NCBI RefSeq assembly: GCF_054482525.1
Contig: NZ_CM137006.1
Direction: 5' to 3' (one strand)
DNA: 64,000 nt
Shown here piece after piece: positions 2,189-42,119 of the stretch. Within the stretch, counting starts at the first letter, position 1. The number at the start of each line of letters is the position of its first letter. The notes beneath the pieces are model-generated. The model did no database searches, was not told the DNA's origin, and saw only the letters and a list, made by a program, of their open reading frames with translations. The position numbers were made by a program, and so were the translations under genes.

Positions 2189-3739
2189 ATGAAGAGATCG
2201 ATTTCGTTTCGTCCTACATTGCTCGCCATCGTCCTTGCCACAACAATGCCGGTTGCGCACGCCGCCGTACCGAAAGATATGCTGGTGATCGGTAAAGCTG
2301 CCGATCCACAAACCCTCGACCCGGCGGTGACAATTGATAATAACGACTGGACGGTGACCTACCCGTCTTATCAGCGACTGGTTCAGTACAAAACGGACGG
2401 TGATAAAGGCTCAACCGACGTTGAAGGCGATCTGGCAAGTAGCTGGAAAGCGTCTGACGATCAAAAAGAGTGGACGTTCACCCTGAAGAACAATGCTAAA
2501 TTTGCCGATGGCGCACCTGTCACTGCCGAAGCAGTAAAACTCTCTTTTGAGCGGTTACTAAAAATCGGCCAGGGGCCAGCAGAAGCATTTCCCAAAGATT
2601 TAAAGATTGATGCTCCCGACGAACATACGGTGAAGTTTACCCTTAGCCAGCCATTCGCACCGTTCCTCTATACGCTGGCGAATGACGGTGCATCCATTAT
2701 CAATCCGGCGGTCTTAAAGGAGCATGCGGCGGATGATGCCCGTGGTTTCCTCGCGCAAAATACCGCTGGCTCCGGACCGTTTATGCTGAAAAGCTGGCAA
2801 AAAGGTCAGCAATTAGTTCTGGTGCCAAATCCGCATTACCCCGGCAATAAACCGAACTTCAAACGGGTATCGGTAAAAATTATCGGTGAAAGTGCCTCCC
2901 GTCGCCTGCAGCTCTCCCGTGGCGACATTGACATTGCCGATGCGCTGCCGGTGGATCAACTCAACGCACTGAAGCAGGAAAACAAAGTCAACGTGGCAGA
3001 GTATCCGTCACTGCGCGTCACCTATCTGTATCTGAATAACAGCAAAGCGCCACTTAATCAGGCGGATCTGCGTCGGGCCATTTCCTGGTCTACCGATTAT
3101 CAGGGAATGGTTAACGGCATTCTGAGTGGTAACGGAAAACAAATGCGCGGCCCGATTCCGGAAGGCATGTGGGGATACGATGCGACGGCAATGCAATACA
3201 ACCATGACGAAACGAAAGCCAAAGCCGAATGGGATAAAGTGACGAGCAAACCCACCAGCCTGACGTTTCTCTACTCCGATAACGACCCGAACTGGGAACC
3301 GATCGCTCTGGCGACACAATCCAGTCTCAACAAGCTGGGCATCAATGTGAAGCTGGAAAAACTGGCGAACGCCACCATGCGCGACAGAGTGGGTAAAGGT
3401 GATTACGACATTGCGATTGGCAACTGGAGTCCGGATTTTGCCGACCCGTATATGTTTATGAATTACTGGTTTGAGTCAGACAAAAAAGGTCTGCCGGGTA
3501 ACCGCTCGTTCTATGAAAACAGTGAGGTCGATAAGTTACTGCGCAATGCGCTAGCGACCACCGACCAGACGCAGCGTACCCGGGACTACCAGCAGGCACA
3601 GAAAATCGTCATTGATGACGCTGCTTATGTGTACCTGTTCCAGAAAAACTACCAACTGGCGATGAACAAAGAGGTGAAAGGCTTTGTGTTCAATCCCATG
3701 CTGGAACAGGTCTTCAATATCAATACCATGAGTAAATAA
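2189..3739 (+). CDS. ddpA: periplasmic dipeptide-binding protein of ABC transporter
   Basis: ORF 2054..3739; chosen start is the ATG giving MKRSISFRPTLLAIVLATTMPVAHA (signal peptide) with AGGAAA RBS; family 5 solute-binding fold. Confidence 0.9.
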   Translation: MKRSISFRPTLLAIVLATTMPVAHAAVPKDMLVIGKAADPQTLDPAVTIDNNDWTVTYPSYQRLVQYKTDGDKGSTDVEGDLASSWKASDDQKEWTFTLKNNAKFADGAPVTAEAVKLSFERLLKIGQGPAEAFPKDLKIDAPDEHTVKFTLSQPFAPFLYTLANDGASIINPAVLKEHAADDARGFLAQNTAGSGPFMLKSWQKGQQLVLVPNPHYPGNKPNFKRVSVKIIGESASRRLQLSRGDIDIADALPVDQLNALKQENKVNVAEYPSLRVTYLYLNNSKAPLNQADLRRAISWSTDYQGMVNGILSGNGKQMRGPIPEGMWGYDATAMQYNHDETKAKAEWDKVTSKPTSLTFLYSDNDPNWEPIALATQSSLNKLGINVKLEKLANATMRDRVGKGDYDIAIGNWSPDFADPYMFMNYWFESDKKGLPGNRSFYENSEVDKLLRNALATTDQTQRTRDYQQAQKIVIDDAAYVYLFQKNYQLAMNKEVKGFVFNPMLEQVFNINTMSK

Positions 3740-3740
3740 C

Positions 3741-4763
3741 GTGACCTTCTGGAGTATTTTACGCCAACGCTGCTGGGGGCTGGTGCTCGTGGTGGCGGGC
3801 GTCTGTGTGATTACGTTTATTATCTCGCACCTGATCCCCGGCGATCCGGCGCGGTTACTGGCGGGTGACCGCGCCAGCGATGCTATCGTGGATAATATTC
3901 GCCAGCAACTGGGACTGGACCAGCCACTGTACGTACAGTTTTACCGCTACGTCAGCGACCTGTTTCAGGGTGACCTGGGAACATCCATTCGTACCGGGCG
4001 TCCGGTGCTGGAAGAGTTGCGCATATTTTTCCCGGCGACGCTGGAACTGGCTTTTTGTGCCCTGCTGCTGGCACTCCTGATTGGCATCCCGCTGGGCATA
4101 CTCTCTGCAGTCTGGCGAAATCGCTGGCTGGATCATCTGGTGCGAATAATGGCCATTACCGGAATCTCCACACCTGCGTTCTGGCTTGGGCTGGGTGTCA
4201 TTGTGCTGTTTTATGGTCATCTGCAAATTCTTCCCGGCGGCGGAAGGCTTGATGACTGGCTGGATCCACCAACGCACGTTACCGGCTTTTATCTGCTCGA
4301 TGCGCTGCTTGAAGGTAACGGTGAAGTCTTCTTCAATGCGCTGCAACATCTCATCTTACCGACATTAACGCTGGCGTTCGTTCACCTGGGGATTGTCGCT
4401 CGCCAGATCCGCTCAGCTATGCTGGAACAATTGAGTGAAGATTACATTCGTACCGCCCGGGCCAGCGGCTTGCCCGGCTGGTATATCGTTTTATGTTATG
4501 CGCTACCCAATGCGTTGATCCCCTCGATTACCGTATTGGGACTGGCGCTGGGCGATTTGTTGTATGGCGCAGTGCTCACCGAAACCGTTTTTGCCTGGCC
4601 CGGAATGGGTGCATGGGTAGTAACATCAATACAGGCGCTCGACTTCCCGGCAGTGATGGGCTTTGCCGTCGTGGTTTCGTTTGCTTATGTGCTGGTCAAC
4701 CTGGTGGTGGATTTGCTCTATTTGTGGATTGATCCGCGTATCGGACGTGGAGGTGGTGAATGA
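3741..4763 (+). CDS. ddpB: ABC transporter permease
   Basis: 340 aa hydrophobic ORF, GTG start 2 nt after ddpA stop; DppB-like. Confidence 0.9.
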   Translation: MTFWSILRQRCWGLVLVVAGVCVITFIISHLIPGDPARLLAGDRASDAIVDNIRQQLGLDQPLYVQFYRYVSDLFQGDLGTSIRTGRPVLEELRIFFPATLELAFCALLLALLIGIPLGILSAVWRNRWLDHLVRIMAITGISTPAFWLGLGVIVLFYGHLQILPGGGRLDDWLDPPTHVTGFYLLDALLEGNGEVFFNALQHLILPTLTLAFVHLGIVARQIRSAMLEQLSEDYIRTARASGLPGWYIVLCYALPNALIPSITVLGLALGDLLYGAVLTETVFAWPGMGAWVVTSIQALDFPAVMGFAVVVSFAYVLVNLVVDLLYLWIDPRIGRGGGE

Positions 4764-5656
4764 TGCTAAGCGAGGAAACGTCCGCCGTACGCCCAGCAAA
4801 ACAAACGCGATTTAACCGTGCAAAACTGGTATGGATGCTGAAAGGCAGTCCGCTCACCGTGACCGGCGCAGTCATCATTGTATTAATGCTACTGATGATG
4901 ATTTTTTCACCGTGGCTGGCGACGCATGATCCCAACGCCATTGATTTAACCGCCCGCCTTTTGCCGCCTTCTGCGGCGCACTGGTTTGGCACCGATGAAG
5001 TGGGACGCGATCTGTTTAGCCGCGTACTGGTCGGCAGTCAGCAATCAATTCTCGCCGGATTAGTGGTGGTCGCCATTGCGGGTATGATGGGTTCGCTACT
5101 CGGGTGTCTATCCGGTGTGCTTGGCGGACGCGCAGACGCCATCATCATGCGCATCATGGACATTATGCTGTCGATTCCTTCGCTGGTGCTGACAATGGCG
5201 CTGGCTGCCGCACTTGGACCGAGTTTGTTTAACGCCATGCTGGCGATTGCTATTGTGCGAATTCCCTTTTATGTGCGCCTGGCGCGGGGGCAAACATTAG
5301 TTGTTCGCCAGTACACTTACGTTCAGGCGGCGAAAACCTTTGGTGCGTCGCGTTGGCATCTGATCAATTGGCATATTTTACGTAACTCCCTGCCGCCGCT
5401 GATTGTGCAGGCATCGCTGGATATCGGTAGCGCGATTTTAATGGCCGCCACGTTGGGATTTATTGGCCTGGGTGCTCAACAACCGAGTGCTGAATGGGGG
5501 GCGATGGTGGCGAATGGTCGCAACTATGTGCTCGATCAATGGTGGTATTGCGCATTTCCGGGGGCAGCGATTTTGCTTACCGCCGTCGGGTTCAATCTCT
5601 TTGGTGATGGTATTCGCGATCTGCTTGACCCGAAAGCAGGAGGAAAGCAGTCATGA
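4760..5656 (+). CDS. ddpC: ABC transporter permease
   Basis: 298 aa ORF overlapping ddpB stop by 4 nt; DppC-like membrane protein. Confidence 0.9.
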   Translation: MMLSEETSAVRPAKQTRFNRAKLVWMLKGSPLTVTGAVIIVLMLLMMIFSPWLATHDPNAIDLTARLLPPSAAHWFGTDEVGRDLFSRVLVGSQQSILAGLVVVAIAGMMGSLLGCLSGVLGGRADAIIMRIMDIMLSIPSLVLTMALAAALGPSLFNAMLAIAIVRIPFYVRLARGQTLVVRQYTYVQAAKTFGASRWHLINWHILRNSLPPLIVQASLDIGSAILMAATLGFIGLGAQQPSAEWGAMVANGRNYVLDQWWYCAFPGAAILLTAVGFNLFGDGIRDLLDPKAGGKQS

Positions 5657-6639
5657 CCCAACCCGTTCTGGACATTCAACAGCTGCATTTGAGTTTCCCC
5701 GGTTTTAACGGCGACGTTCACGCGCTCAACAATGTGTCCTTGCAGATTAACCGCGGTGAAATTGTCGGTCTGGTGGGAGAATCCGGCTCGGGTAAATCAG
5801 TCACTGCAATGTTGATTATGCGTCTGTTACCGACGGGCAGTTATTGCGTACATCGGGGACATATTTCACTGCTGGGAGAAGATGTTCTTAACGCGCAGGA
5901 AAAACAGCTTCGTCAGTGGCGCGGCGCACGAGTGGCGATGATCTTTCAGGAACCGATGACCGCCCTCAATCCGACACGTCGAATAGGTCTTCAGATGATG
6001 GACGTGATCCGCCATCATCAACCAATAAGTCGTCGGGAAGCCAGAGCTAAAGCGATTGCCCTGCTGGAAGAGATGCAAATCCCGGATGCCGTGGAAGTTA
6101 TGTCGCGCTATCCGTTTGAGCTTTCAGGTGGTATGCGCCAGCGGGTAATGATTGCGCTGGCATTCTCCTGCGAGCCGCAATTGATTATTGCCGACGAACC
6201 GACTACGGCGCTGGACGTCACGGTACAGTTGCAGGTACTGCGTCTGCTTAAACATAAAGCCCGCGCCAGTGGAACTGCGGTACTGTTCATCAGCCATGAT
6301 ATGGCCGTGGTGTCGCAACTGTGCGATAGCGTTTACGTGATGTATGCCGGAAGCGTGATTGAGAGCGGCGTGACGGCAGACGTTATCCATCATCCCCGGC
6401 ATCCGTATACCATTGGTTTGCTGCAATGCGCACCGGAACATGGAATACCGCGCCAGCCATTACCCGCCATTCCAGGGACGGTACCAAACCTCACCCATTT
6501 GCCTGACGGCTGCGCTTTTCGCGATCGTTGCTATGCGGCAGGTGCACAGTGTGAAAACGTCCCGGCGCTGACAGCGTGTGGTGACAACAACCACAGCTGC
6601 GCCTGTTGGTATCCTCAGCAGGAGGTCATTAGTGTCTGA
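5653..6639 (+). CDS. ddpD: ABC transporter ATP-binding protein
   Basis: Walker A GESGSGKS and LSGGMRQR signature in translation; 4 nt overlap with ddpC. Confidence 0.9.
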   Translation: MTQPVLDIQQLHLSFPGFNGDVHALNNVSLQINRGEIVGLVGESGSGKSVTAMLIMRLLPTGSYCVHRGHISLLGEDVLNAQEKQLRQWRGARVAMIFQEPMTALNPTRRIGLQMMDVIRHHQPISRREARAKAIALLEEMQIPDAVEVMSRYPFELSGGMRQRVMIALAFSCEPQLIIADEPTTALDVTVQLQVLRLLKHKARASGTAVLFISHDMAVVSQLCDSVYVMYAGSVIESGVTADVIHHPRHPYTIGLLQCAPEHGIPRQPLPAIPGTVPNLTHLPDGCAFRDRCYAAGAQCENVPALTACGDNNHSCACWYPQQEVISV

Positions 6640-39416: not shown

Positions 39417-39986
39417 GTGAGCCGATTTATCCCCGTCGAATTACACCATGCCAGCCGTCTGTTAAATCATGGCCCAACTGTCTTGATCACCAGTTTCGAT
39501 GAGCAATCCCAGCGGCGTAACATTATGGCAGCAGCCTGGTCAATGCCGGTGGAGTTTGAACCGCCACGCGTGGCGATTGTGGTAGATAAATCGACATGGA
39601 CCAGGGGGTTGATTGAACGTAATGGTAAGTTTGGCATCGTTATCCCGGGTGTTGCAGCAACTAACTGGACGTGGGCGGTGGGAAGTGTGTCGGGGCGTGA
39701 TGAAGATAAGTTTAATTGCTATGGTATTCCGGTTGTGAAAGGTCCGGTACTTGGTTTGCCTCTGGTCGAGGAAAAATGTCTGGCGTGGATGGAGTGCCGC
39801 TTGCTACCTGCGACTTCCGCGCAAGAAAAATACGACACGCTGTTTGGCGAGGTGGTATCAGCAGCGGCAGACGCACGGGTATTTGTCGAAGGCCGCTGGC
39901 AGTTTGATGATGATAAACTCAATACACTACATCACTTAGGTGCTGGCACGTTTGTTACCAGCGGCAAGCGAGTCACCGCGGGCTAA
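39417..39986 (+). CDS. yddH: flavin reductase-like domain protein
   Basis: 189 aa ORF downstream of nhoA. Confidence 0.8.
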   Translation: MSRFIPVELHHASRLLNHGPTVLITSFDEQSQRRNIMAAAWSMPVEFEPPRVAIVVDKSTWTRGLIERNGKFGIVIPGVAATNWTWAVGSVSGRDEDKFNCYGIPVVKGPVLGLPLVEEKCLAWMECRLLPATSAQEKYDTLFGEVVSAAADARVFVEGRWQFDDDKLNTLHHLGAGTFVTSGKRVTAG

Positions 39987-40054
39987 AGAATCATATGCAG
40001 CAACCAAGTTGCTTAAGCAATGTTTCAATATGAGTTAAAAGCATACTTTATTTA

Positions 40055-40252
40055 CGATTGTATATTTTTAGTGAAGATTAATTTATCCTCACCAATATCA
40101 TAGTAATTGCGTATTATAGCTTCATTGATAAAGCCCTGTTTTGTATAAAATGCGCGGGTGGCACTAAAATCGACATAGCTGGAGGTCTCTACTAAAAGTA
40201 GTCTTGCGTGATTGGGACAGGTCAAGAAAAAGCAGTTTTGCAGTTTTTTATT
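40055..40252 (-). pseudogene. 3' remnant of a GNAT-family acetyltransferase (no start codon, about 65 codons)
   Basis: hand translation of minus strand: ...LLLVETSSYVDFSATRAFYTKQGFINEAIIRNYYDIGEDKLIFTKNIQS* resembles a GNAT C-terminal motif; bounded upstream by an in-frame stop. Confidence 0.4.
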
Positions 40253-40637
40253 TCAGGGCACAGTTGCGAAAATTGAATACCGTATGGACTAATGTGAGAA
40301 AATTCCGAGGTATGACTGTTTTGATATAGTGGACAATCAAGCGTCTCGAATTAACAATGAATTTCAGGTGCCAAGCCTTACAATTTGTAGCATGACGGAT
40401 ATAGGACAACATTAGGAAATCGGACAGAAAATTCATTATAATAAAATGACAACTTATCTCTTTCTCTCACGTTCTGTGAAATTTCACAAAAGTATAAACT
40501 GAGCCAATATGCCTTTATATATAAAAAATACTCATGTTTATTATTATCGGAAAAAGCCAAGATTTTGTCAAGGCCATCAAAAATATCTTTATCATGATCT
40601 ATATGTACTCTTGATGATTTCACAATACAGGGAAAGA

Positions 40638-41774
40638 TTACGAAAGCCCGCTCCCCGCAAGGACTGACGCGAGATAGTTTCTGTCCATGGCTGCTTTTCG
40701 CATCTTACGTCTTAACCCTGCCTTGAATACCTTATCATTCGTCAAAATATTAATAGCGATGTGCCGTATCCCTGAAAATAATTCTGCGGCGTTTCCTCTT
40801 CTTATTTTGCAGTCGTCTTCATTCATTACCACGTCCAGACGCCAGTGCAGCTTATTCTCTACGTGCCAGTGATTTCGGATCGCTGTGGCGAACTTTTCTG
40901 CGGTTAAATCAGCAGAACTGATATAATATCTGACCGTCATTTCTGGCTCTTTCTTTTGTTCTGCTATTATTGACCGAAAAGAGACTGCCACGCATAATTT
41001 CTTCAGTCCTTTCCATTCAAACGTGAAATCAATAAGTTCATCAGGGACATCGCAAACAATATGAAGACGGATTTCTTCTCTGCCGTGACTCTTTTCACTT
41101 ATTTCGTAACTGTCATGCTCTGGATTATTTAATTCTTTCAGCGGAAATTTTCCCTCAAAGGCTTTATTTAGTCGTCCCTGATTTCCTTTTACAGCGAATA
41201 AATAATCACCGCCCTGTTTTTGTATCTTCTCTGCAATATCTTTCTGGCAACCCATCGCATCAGTTGTGATGATTTTTCCTTTAATATCCAGCATCTTAAG
41301 AAGTTCAGGGATAGCTGTAATTTCATTGGATTTCTCATCCGTCCTGATCTGTCCGATGACCAGACTGTGCATTGTTGAGAACGCACTAATGACATGAATC
41401 GCTCCCTTGCGGCGACTCTTGTCATAAGAGTGCCGGAGTGTTTTTCCATCAATTGAGATGACGTCTTTATCATCTGAAGAATGACAATCACGCATCCAGT
41501 TAATAAAGCACTCGTGAAATTTTGCAGGACTGATACAGGATACAACTCTGGCGATGGTATCGTGAACAGGAATACCATTTTCAAAATCACCATATTGTTT
41601 TAAAAAATCGAGATGTGTTTCCCCAAAATCCTCTATACCTTCCCAACCTTCTGCACCCGAAATAACGGCACAAATAGTCAACAGTAGAATATCCGATAAT
41701 TTATGTTCCACTTTCCAGGCTTGTCTGTAATCGGGGATAATAGAAATATGTTCCATCATTTTTTTAAGTTCCAT
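40638..41774 (-). mobile_element. ISAs1-family (H-repeat-associated) transposase gene; element ends not resolved
   Basis: 378 aa translation matches remembered H-repeat/YdcC-like transposases ([37 protein letters not shown]...); lies directly downstream of an Rhs element. Confidence 0.8.
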
Positions 41775-42119
41775 TTTGTTCTCCTTAATTATGTAAGGAG
41801 TATTTGATCATGTATAAGCAATAAAAACAGCTTTAGGTAATGAGGAATATCTCAATTTTTAAACATAAAATGCGAATTATTTAGTACAGAAAGTGAACTT
41901 CTGATGATCTTTCCCTGCCCATTGGGTTCATTAAGATCAAGAATAATGGGAATATGCTCAAGAAGACTTTGAATGTTCACCAGACGTCCTTTTCTAATAT
42001 ATTTAATTATTTGGCGATTGAATTTTAATCAAATCAACAAGGTAAAACCAAGATTAAAGTTGTGATGATAATCACAACTTTAATGATCTTCCCCTGATTC
42101 CTCCAGTCCTTTTATTTGG

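Follow-up and report, generated by a model that had tools for sequence, protein, structure and literature searches.

Gene remnants beside an intact ISEc1/H-repeat element at the yddH-proximal edge of an Escherichia coli vgrG-rhs island

The window, which is the whole 64,000-nucleotide stretch of DNA that was analyzed, contains a variable interval between yddH and an Rhs gene (Table 1). As seen by blastn, homology to K-12 ends exactly at the stop codon of yddH, at position 39986; yddH is a conserved core gene and forms one boundary of the variable interval. The 641 bp from yddH to the insertion sequence (39987-40627) have a G+C content of 33.2%, versus 52.5% for yddH itself, and PGAP does not place any feature within 39987-40637 in the identical genomes. 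Farther on, beyond the insertion sequence and a relic of a second one, lies a 114-aa gene with weak Pfam matches only, directly downstream of Rhs. We also searched 39800-42600 with Rfam and did not find an RNA gene: the single match was a sub-threshold chance match to a Bacteroides sRNA (21.6 bits, versus a gathering score of 80.4). A scan for promoters and terminators gave the counts that are expected from shuffled sequence. One promoter-like site, at 40571-40543, scores 11/12.

Table 1. Features between yddH and the Rhs gene, with positions in the window
Feature	Positions	Strand	Basis or remark
yddH, flavin reductase family	39417..39986	+	Pfam Flavin_Reduct; PGAP in identical genomes
GNAT N-acetyltransferase 3' remnant, last 51 codons and stop	40052..40210 (end approximate)	-	Synteny to strain 2012C-4502
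Deletion junction, ~466-469 bp lost	40207..40211	.	blastn and MAFFT
Former intergenic DNA, from the GNAT upstream region to the 3' end of the immunity-like gene	40211..40377	.	Collinear with 2012C-4502 (L004), Ecol_316 (L005), and CP053258 (L014)
Spurious 62-aa ORF	40248..40436	-	Overlaps the 40378..40627 remnant in another frame
3' remnant (last 81 codons and stop) of a 211-aa orphan gene	40378..40627	-	WP_001032567.1 elsewhere
Complete ISAs1-family insertion sequence, ISEc1 / H-repeat (ydcC) type, 1,290 bp	40628..41917	-	
Transposase gene, full length, 378 aa	40638..41774	-	
Relic of a second, yncI-type ISAs1-family element, 179 bp	41918..42096	-	
114-aa gene, presumed cognate immunity gene (context)	42120..42464	-	PGAP hypothetical protein WP_001279013.1
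Rhs core protein with C-terminal Tox-WTIP toxin domain (context)	42491..46645	-	Downstream of VgrG

First, the insertion sequence is complete. A first-pass annotation of this DNA had described an intact H-repeat/ISAs1-type transposase, and the family models agree: the protein matches transpos_ISAs1 of NCBIfam (NF033564) at 412.8 bits (cut-off, 70), across model positions 1-314 of 314, and it scores above the cut-offs of both DDE_Tnp_1_assoc and DDE_Tnp_1 in Pfam. It is also 96% identical to YdcC of K-12. That annotation treated 39987-41774 as one unit, and the objects that it named are at or near the positions it gave, except that the element does not end at 41774 but reaches 41917. Across its full extent (40628-41917), the element aligns end to end with the 1,291-bp ydcC element of K-12, at 95.7% DNA identity. 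Its terminal inverted repeats are CAGGGAAAGAT at 40628-40638 and the reverse complement at 41907-41917. The size (~1.2-1.3 kb), the single ORF, and the inverted repeats that start with CAGGG are those of an ISAs1-family element; ISArsp11, another member of the family, has the same CAGGG ends (PMC6305408). PGAP names a close relative, at two of the loci we compared (L016 and L022), "ISAs1-like element ISEc1 family transposase."

A simple insertion by a member of this family leaves a target-site duplication of ~10 bp, as reported for ISArsp11 (PMC6305408). There is no such duplication at the element in the window, whose flanks (TTTCACAATA and CCCATTGGGT) do not repeat, and there is none at the ydcC element of K-12 either. 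A missing duplication is to be expected if the DNA on either side of the element was deleted once it had inserted, and the family assignment stands regardless.

At its left end, the intact element cuts into the yncI-type relic. What is left of the relic is a terminal repeat (CAGGGGAAGATC, whose last position is 42096), the leader, and codons 1-21 (with the ATG at 41980), and it is 73% identical over 148 bp to positions 6471-6616 of the K-12 locus (L003), which span the start of the yncI pseudogene. A 42-aa ORF at 41852-41980 opens with MNIQSLLEHIPII and resembles the N-terminus of a transposase. In 2012C-4502, the relic is shorter by a further 35 bp, and the left end of the insertion sequence adjoins a yncI-type relic of differing length in the window, in 2012C-4502, and in K-12.

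Second, we examined the AT-rich DNA between the insertion sequence and yddH. Pfam did not match any of the three short ORFs in this segment, so homology was taken from synteny. The ORF nearest to yddH is a 66-aa fragment that has no Pfam match by itself. However, the GNAT remnant within it aligns at 94% DNA identity, and at the same position, to an annotated GNAT gene of 2012C-4502, and it is 78% identical over 51 amino acids to an intact 155-aa GNAT from Salmonella (P0022; E = 2e-28). If the syntenic version is read through to 155 aa, it passes the Pfam cut-offs for Acetyltransf_7 (38.8 bits; cut-off, 27), Acetyltransf_1 (31.1 bits; cut-off, 20.7), and Acetyltransf_10. By these alignments, the GNAT match is real homology and not a chance resemblance.

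The remnant is missing its start codon, its promoter, and its acetyl-CoA motif. A deletion of ~466-469 bp took codons 1 to ~104 and the upstream region, including the promoter, and the acetyl-CoA-binding Q/RxxGxG/A stretch (QRQGVG in 2012C-4502) is within the deleted codons. The same deletion is found in Ecol_316, but not in 2012C-4502, UTI89 (L006), or CP053258; we saw no convincing microhomology at the junction. The fragment had been proposed as a start-less GNAT remnant at 40055-40252. It is one, but those limits overshoot by ~40 bp, as 40211-40252 is open frame past the deletion junction. When it is set against GNATs of ~155 aa (which are RimI-like, with weak NCBIfam similarity), its C-terminal 51 residues align and the N-terminal ~104 are gone. 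We rejected an identification as rimI: the RimI score is 39 bits, and the equivalog cut-off is 86. Intact homologs of 154-157 aa are common in other Enterobacterales, and those found elsewhere lie in integrase islands or in variable contexts. The E. coli copies that we inspected are each damaged differently, by a nonsense mutation (codon 127), by a truncation (71 aa or 108 aa), or by the deletion described above. As judged from these comparisons, the copy in the window is a pseudogene remnant and not a functional member of the family.

In K-12, the corresponding position is occupied by pptA. The first-pass annotation had placed pptA there and had noticed no ORF of its size here, and both observations hold, as pptA was found in K-12 and K-12 PptA has no tblastn match in the whole window at E <= 1. 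Among 5,426 genomes, 4,653 have pptA-type DNA and 660 have the GNAT type, as in the window, which is a minority allele of the locus: roughly 12% of the complete E. coli genomes have the GNAT type. We also considered whether the GNAT gene might belong, like yddH beside it, to the conserved core, and rejected this because of its 33% G+C, this low count, and the integrase islands or variable contexts of its intact homologs. Between yddH and the insertion sequence, the pptA-type flank and the GNAT-type flank are alternatives that share no homology, and pptA is variable island cargo rather than part of the core genome.

Upstream of the GNAT deletion is former intergenic DNA, within which PGAP does not place a feature in any genome inspected. 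The 62-aa ORF that begins there has no PGAP annotation in the genomes inspected. In the orthologous DNA of 2012C-4502 and CP053258, its frame is broken by stops and 4-6 gap positions, and in CP053258 the ATG is lost as well. It is, by this comparison, a chance ORF.

The third ORF has a different history. Its remnant is 95-98% identical to the C-terminus of a 211-aa protein; the gene is cut exactly at the terminus of the insertion sequence, at codon ~130, and 38% of it survives. An intact homolog of a short ORF had been named in advance as something that would speak against decay. Such a homolog exists, yet it favors a remnant, because only the last 81 codons of the 211-aa homolog remain in the window.

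The 211-aa family does not have a Pfam or NCBIfam match at E <= 1, including the Imm families, and a profile search did not find a sequence match in the PDB. The AlphaFold model of the 211-aa protein is of moderate quality (pLDDT 67), and Foldseek against the PDB returned nothing below E = 1. Relatives of the gene lie 9-17 bp downstream of an EndoU_bacteria domain, on the same strand, at five unrelated loci; the gap is 17 bp in L007-L009, L012, and L013, 14 bp in L017, and 9 bp in L020. These settings include a T6SS PAAR-like effector cluster, an orphan C-terminal tip, an Rhs-fragment array, and a pyocin-S-type array in which the next pair is ColicinD and Colicin_immun. Because the relatives come directly after EndoU RNase toxin domains, the gene neighborhood indicates that the 211-aa gene is most likely an orphaned gene for immunity to an EndoU-type RNase effector. 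We call it an orphan because there is no toxin next to it in the window or at the other E. coli and E. albertii loci. Also, tblastn with the EndoU, PAAR-like, and DUF2169 proteins of Pseudocitrobacter did not identify an EndoU remnant in the window, L003-L006, L010, or L014. Of the two short ORFs that had been suggested to be orphan immunity remnants, 40378-40623 keeps this reading, as its relatives follow EndoU domains, and 40248-40436, which is not conserved, loses it.

Might the surviving 81-aa ORF (40378-40623) still be a working gene, translated by read-through from the transposase gene into a C-terminal helical domain that partly protects against EndoU toxins? It is on the strand of the transposase and starts 15 bp past the transposase stop codon, it covers the most confidently predicted stretch of the model (residues 130-200; pLDDT 79-92), and its frame is open both in the window and in the ~5% diverged haplotype of 2012C-4502. 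However, 130 of the 211 residues are missing; the start codon would be a GTG without a Shine-Dalgarno-like sequence upstream; PGAP does not call the ORF in identical genomes; and it is wholly deleted in R32_14_1F and AST240. Between the two truncated copies, pN/pS is 0.82, from only 5-18 differences, which does not distinguish selection from neutrality. We consider a working gene to be very unlikely and treat the ORF as a remnant.

To see how the remnants may have arisen, consider the right end of the insertion sequence in other strains. The same terminus (CAGGG[A/C]AAGATTACG...) adjoins five different sequences. In Ecol_316, it lies upstream of a 186-aa gene; both the window and 2012C-4502 have it inside the 211-aa gene; R32_14_1F has it within the GNAT remnant, at what is position 40171 of the window; in K-12, it is 89 bp upstream of pptA; and in EC08, it falls inside pptA, of which 59 bp are left. 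A strain that has neither the insertion sequence nor Rhs shows an unbroken order of yncG, genes of 90, 110, 140, 186, and 220 aa, GNAT, and yddH. For the 186-aa neighbor in Ecol_316, we found no homology to the E. albertii locus or to the other loci.

Several junctions at the exact end of the element, together with the absence of a target-site duplication, point to nested deletions anchored at the insertion sequence. The ancestral order would have been Rhs/T6SS cargo, ISEc1, the 186-aa gene, the 211-aa gene, GNAT, and yddH. The insertion sequence would have stayed put while nested deletions removed the DNA beside both of its ends, probably by intramolecular transposition, a route that would give an exact terminus and no target-site duplication. 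The deletion that removed the 5' two-thirds of GNAT and its upstream region is a separate event, and none of the remnants would be expressed as a working protein.

Alternatively, ISEc1 might have inserted independently, at a different target in each lineage. Members of the ISAs1 family are genuine insertion sequences that encode DDE transposases, and each genome carries several copies or fragments (a median of five matching places). But independent insertion does not explain why there is no target-site duplication beside the element, or why the rest of the interrupted gene is never found beyond its opposite end, where Rhs-side material or a yncI-type relic lies in every case. Furthermore, the orientation and the locus of the element are identical in every strain inspected. 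This explanation seems extremely improbable.

Another possibility is that the flanks were lost independently of the insertion sequence, by illegitimate or homologous recombination in an AT-rich, recombination-prone Rhs island, including allele replacement between pptA-type and GNAT-type cassettes, and that the element was passive. The GNAT deletion has no insertion sequence at its junction; AST240 has a deletion, from window position 40294 into Rhs, with which IS1 rather than ISEc1 is associated; and in BL21, the 3' end of ISEc1 is itself gone, along with 39 bp. The non-homologous pptA-type and GNAT-type flanks between yddH and the insertion sequence would also fit. In addition, according to the literature, transposition of H-repeats has not been observed (PMC3032704), so we infer deletion mediated by the insertion sequence from the geometry of the junctions alone. 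On the other hand, five different junctions keep the terminus to the base, which is unexpected if deletion endpoints are random. In a variant of this explanation, homologous recombination between copies of the element, or illegitimate recombination that ended by chance at its end, may have produced the junctions. We think that a passive element is unlikely, and we prefer nested deletions anchored at the insertion sequence; the junctions at its exact end suggest, as circumstantial evidence, that activity of the H-repeat element has helped to shape the locus.

Overall, 39987-40627 does not contain a live gene and is pseudogene debris rather than a set of hidden genes. We conclude, with a probability of roughly 85%, that the vgrG-rhs island ends, on its yddH side, in non-functional wreckage that adjoins one intact mobile element. 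An eroded edge of the Rhs island had been suspected from the window alone, and the several independent deletion junctions in other strains support it. This is ordinary genome decay at the edge of an E. coli Rhs toxin island and not a new system; it documents the decay of the distal edge of an Rhs/T6SS island, and for the window itself the stakes are low. A single point is modestly new, namely an EndoU-linked immunity family that lacks a family annotation: a small enterobacterial family, whose database labels are "aminopeptidase" or "hypothetical," can be reinterpreted as a probable family of immunity proteins against EndoU toxins. A bolder, joint proposal is that the 211-aa protein represents an undescribed, all-helical family of EndoU-RNase immunity proteins and that ISEc1/H-repeat, long deemed inactive, actively trims orphan immunity arrays at Rhs loci by adjacent deletions. 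We give this slightly less than even odds. If it is true, then EndoU effectors are carried by T6SS PAAR-like, Rhs, and pyocin-S-type vehicles.

The closest comparison is the ydcC element at the rhsE locus of K-12 (b1455-b1461), which has the same locus and the same orientation relative to yddH and Rhs as the element in the window. Both have CAGGG... terminal repeats and both adjoin a yncI-type second H-repeat, of which ~1.2 kb is kept in K-12 and 179 bp in the window. The two differ between the insertion sequence and yddH, where K-12 has pptA and the window has the GNAT and immunity remnants, and in that rhsE is a pseudogene in K-12 whereas the Rhs of the window is full and carries a Tox-WTIP tip. 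IS1, IS10, and IS903 are known to cause adjacent deletions by intramolecular transposition. The deletions proposed here would resemble those in being nested, in sharing one exact terminus of the insertion sequence, and in lacking a target-site duplication; they differ in that, for the ISAs1 family, adjacent deletion is read from comparative junctions only. Among polymorphic toxin systems, the listed immunity partners of EndoU are SUKH, Imm-SuFu, and Imm28 (Zhang et al. 2012, PMC3482391), and the 211-aa family matches none of the Pfam Imm families. It does share the features of the orphan immunity genes of such systems, which are likewise small, AT-rich, without a toxin, and at the distal end of an Rhs/VgrG island, and CP053258 has a row of similar small genes, as in orphan immunity arrays.

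The window is a segment of an E. coli chromosome, and the gene order around the interval is taken from the ORF list and the annotation of 100%-identical genomes. The locus corresponds to the rhsE locus of K-12 in reversed orientation (K-12 gene order: rhsE', ydcD, yncI', ydcC, pptA, yddH, nhoA), and this setting is well described as Rhs "region 5" (b1455-b1461; PMC3032704). As the first-pass annotation had noticed, the DNA next to the transposase is AT rich: 39987-40627 is 33.2% G+C, whereas yddH has 52.5% and the window as a whole 50.7%. Its report that pptA is missing also holds, as we found no trace of pptA anywhere in the window. In the comparison that it proposed, K-12 has pptA between yddH and ydcC, and the window has GNAT and immunity remnants instead. 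A search of complete E. coli genomes (n = 5,426) with 651 bp of the interval matched 660, including three informative relatives. Since pptA-type DNA is present in 4,653 of the 5,426, the GNAT-type flank is a minority allele, and the exact configuration of the window occurs in about 33-39 genomes.

Features of the locus, with positions in the window
Feature	Position	Strand	Source
narZ-narH-narW-narI, yddE, nhoA, then yddH	yddH 39417-39986	+	ORF list, annotation of identical genomes
Gap without PGAP annotation	between yddH and transposase		identical genomes
Deletion junction in GNAT pseudogene	40207-40211		
62-aa ORF, a chance ORF	40248-40436		ORF list
Candidate immunity-gene remnant	40378-40623	-	ORF list
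Sigma-70-like site	40543-40571	-	
ISAs1-family element	40628-41917		
ISAs1-family transposase	40638-41774	-	
yncI-type ISAs1 relic	41918-42096		
Palindrome (14-bp stem)	42053-42084		
Hypothetical gene, 114 aa	42120-42464	-	
Rhs core protein, then VgrG	Rhs 42491-46645	-	

All three ORFs that the first-pass annotation listed in the gap are present. The first, described as a start-less GNAT C-terminal remnant, aligns to an annotated GNAT gene at this position in strain 2012C-4502. Because the window matches that gene on both sides of a gap of ~466-469 bp, the window carries a deletion; the coordinates of the remnant were corrected, and the last 51 codons survive. If its nonsense codon is read through, the 2012C-4502 protein has 155 aa and scores above the Pfam GNAT cut-offs. 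An intact 155-aa homolog from Salmonella is 78% identical to the remnant, and the Enterobacterales contain dozens of intact homologs (154-157 aa). Each of the E. coli copies that we inspected is damaged differently: by a nonsense codon (2012C-4502), by truncation to 71 aa (UTI89) or 108 aa (CP053258), or by the deletion, which Ecol_316 has in common with the window. The remnant has no start codon, promoter, or acetyl-CoA motif, and it is a GNAT pseudogene. In Salmonella enterica (loci L023 and L024, 2739-5468), the intact homolog is part of an island that carries an integrase, where it comes after four small genes (170, 166, 149, and 138 aa), none with a Pfam match. There too, the GNAT gene may move together with small cargo genes.

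The other two ORFs had been proposed as possible orphan immunity remnants. Ecol_316 has an additional 1,404 bp between window position 40627 and the end of the IS, encoding proteins of 211 aa and 186 aa, and the third ORF listed (40378-40623) is the final 81 codons of the 211-aa gene. At the E. coli locus, the 211-aa gene always has the 186-aa gene (WP_000748591.1; 5388-5948 in the Ecol_316 locus, 5082-5642 in that of CP053258) upstream. The window lacks this 186-aa gene, for which we detected no family match and no relative in the other loci that we retrieved. As for the 62-aa ORF, stops and indels interrupt the orthologous DNA of 2012C-4502 and CP053258, and it is a chance ORF.

The 211-aa protein has no matches in Pfam, NCBIfam, or PDB sequences. 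Its structure model is all-helical and of moderate quality (pLDDT 67), and a fold search with this model found no match. The family is tiny (17 representatives among 1.84 billion proteins), mainly from Escherichia, Shigella, and Pseudocitrobacter. In five independent loci, an EndoU toxin domain lies directly 5' of a family member. In Pseudocitrobacter faecalis, the homolog begins 17 bp after an EndoU_bacteria domain (57 bits), at the end of a DUF2169/Tox-PAAR-like T6SS effector cluster. In a Shigella flexneri contig, it begins 17 bp after a 5'-truncated EndoU tip, and a metagenomic contig (L013) has the same arrangement. In GCA_040560315.1 (L017), a Pyocin_S+EndoU module precedes the homolog, and ColicinD and Colicin_immun form the pair that comes next in the array. 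In the fifth locus (L020), the homolog begins 9 bp after an EndoU ORF, with Rhs fragments downstream. This is where a cognate immunity gene lies relative to its toxin. Neither the copies at the yddH locus of E. coli nor those in Escherichia albertii have a toxin remnant beside them, and they are therefore orphans. Gene context thus supports the immunity proposal for one of the two ORFs: 40378-40623 is probably a truncated orphan immunity-like gene. One strain without the IS and without Rhs has an unbroken row of small AT-rich genes between yncG and yddH (90, 110, 140, 186, and 220 aa, then GNAT), which looks like an orphan cargo array. The one modest novelty here is the lack of any family annotation for this EndoU-linked family.

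Several related loci have features of their own. Six EndoU-linked members (P0004, P0005, P0010, P0013, P0015, and P0017) are labeled "aminopeptidase" in NCBI and UniRef with no detectable peptidase domain, which is probably a propagated misannotation. In three independent P. faecalis assemblies (L007 at 3235-4400, L008, and L009), two overlapping ORFs in different frames make up the EndoU effector, one of 272 aa and one, with the EndoU domain, of 135 aa. All three assemblies have the identical split, which could reflect a frameshifted gene, a programmed shift, or a pair of genes. In E. albertii (L010 and L011, 7111-10113), five small genes without Pfam matches, including a 207-aa family member, lie between cusS and an nfrB-like gene, where K-12 cusS adjoins nfrB, and may be a second orphan-immunity islet. 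The array in L017 (3342-8015) comprises four or more short modules with a Pyocin_S domain. Each has a toxin tip of its own (EndoU, Colicin_D, and two unknown) and a small gene after it, and the whole is reminiscent of an array of orphan toxin/immunity cassettes.

Across strains, the right terminus of the IS is kept to the base, yet it abuts five different sequences: DNA upstream of the 186-aa gene (Ecol_316), codon ~130 of the 211-aa gene (the window and 2012C-4502), window position 40171, inside the GNAT remnant (R32_14_1F), a point 89 bp upstream of pptA (K-12), or the last 59 bp of pptA (EC08). The left terminus likewise meets differing DNA: a ~1.2-kb yncI-type H-repeat in K-12, only the first 179 bp of such an element in the window, 35 bp less in 2012C-4502, and the ansP region in EC08. 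The yncI-type relic, which sits between the 114-aa gene and the intact IS, retains its own CAGGGGAAGATC end and first 21 codons; it contains a palindrome that scored as a minus-strand hit in a terminator scan.

These junctions are nested and exact-ended, no target duplication accompanies them, and what lies past the opposite IS end is never the remainder of an interrupted gene. This argues against independent insertions of the IS at different sites, and it is why we favor IS-anchored adjacent deletions, which would have trimmed, in nested fashion, the DNA beside a resident IS. Such a combination is the classical signature of adjacent deletions, as for IS1, IS10, and IS903. No transposition of an H-repeat has yet been observed (PMC3032704), so this mechanistic step is one that we infer. 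Loss independent of this IS also occurs at the locus: there is no IS at the GNAT deletion junction, in AST240 a deletion that extends into Rhs accompanies an IS1 at window position 40294, and BL21 lacks the 3' end of ISEc1 itself. In BL21-AI (L021, 5465-6358), where the ydcC-type IS is missing its 3' end, yddE is also annotated as a pseudogene (internal stop), which is further independent decay. Deletion-type junctions in several strains thus support the earlier description of the interval as an eroded edge of the Rhs island; overall, its observation was confirmed and its interpretation supported, with some coordinates corrected and one ORF dismissed.

Most likely, the interval has no function beyond the IS. 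The immunity remnant, which is short of 130 residues, could start only at a GTG and has no recognizable ribosome-binding site. The transposase gene, on the same strand, stops 15 bp before the remnant, so transcription might read through into it. Rfam identified no RNA gene, and promoter-like and terminator-like sites occur at chance frequency. One near-consensus site inside the immunity remnant (TTGACA, 17 nt, GATAAT; 11/12 matches) faces the GNAT remnant and, antisense, the convergent yddH; such counts are expected by chance in AT-rich DNA. Beyond the IS, the C-terminal end of the Rhs protein is a Tox-WTIP toxin domain (PF15654, 50.8 bits), and the AT-rich 114-aa gene after it, with only a weak match to DUF6981, is presumably its immunity partner.

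The interval holds no new kind of system. The transposase, which had been called an intact H-repeat/ISAs1-type protein, indeed has 378 aa with DDE_Tnp_1_assoc and DDE_Tnp_1 domains and covers the full NCBIfam model transpos_ISAs1 (413 bits; cut-off 70). The element extends beyond this ORF and is bounded by inverted repeats CAGGGAAAGAT. Another ISAs1-family member, ISArsp11, also has CAGGG ends, with a 10-bp target duplication (PMC6305408). Our element and K-12 ydcC/ISEc1 are close alleles: the transposase is 96% identical to YdcC with no gaps, the DNA matches the K-12 element (1,291 bp) over the full length with 95.7% identity, and the two are alike in having no flanking target duplication.
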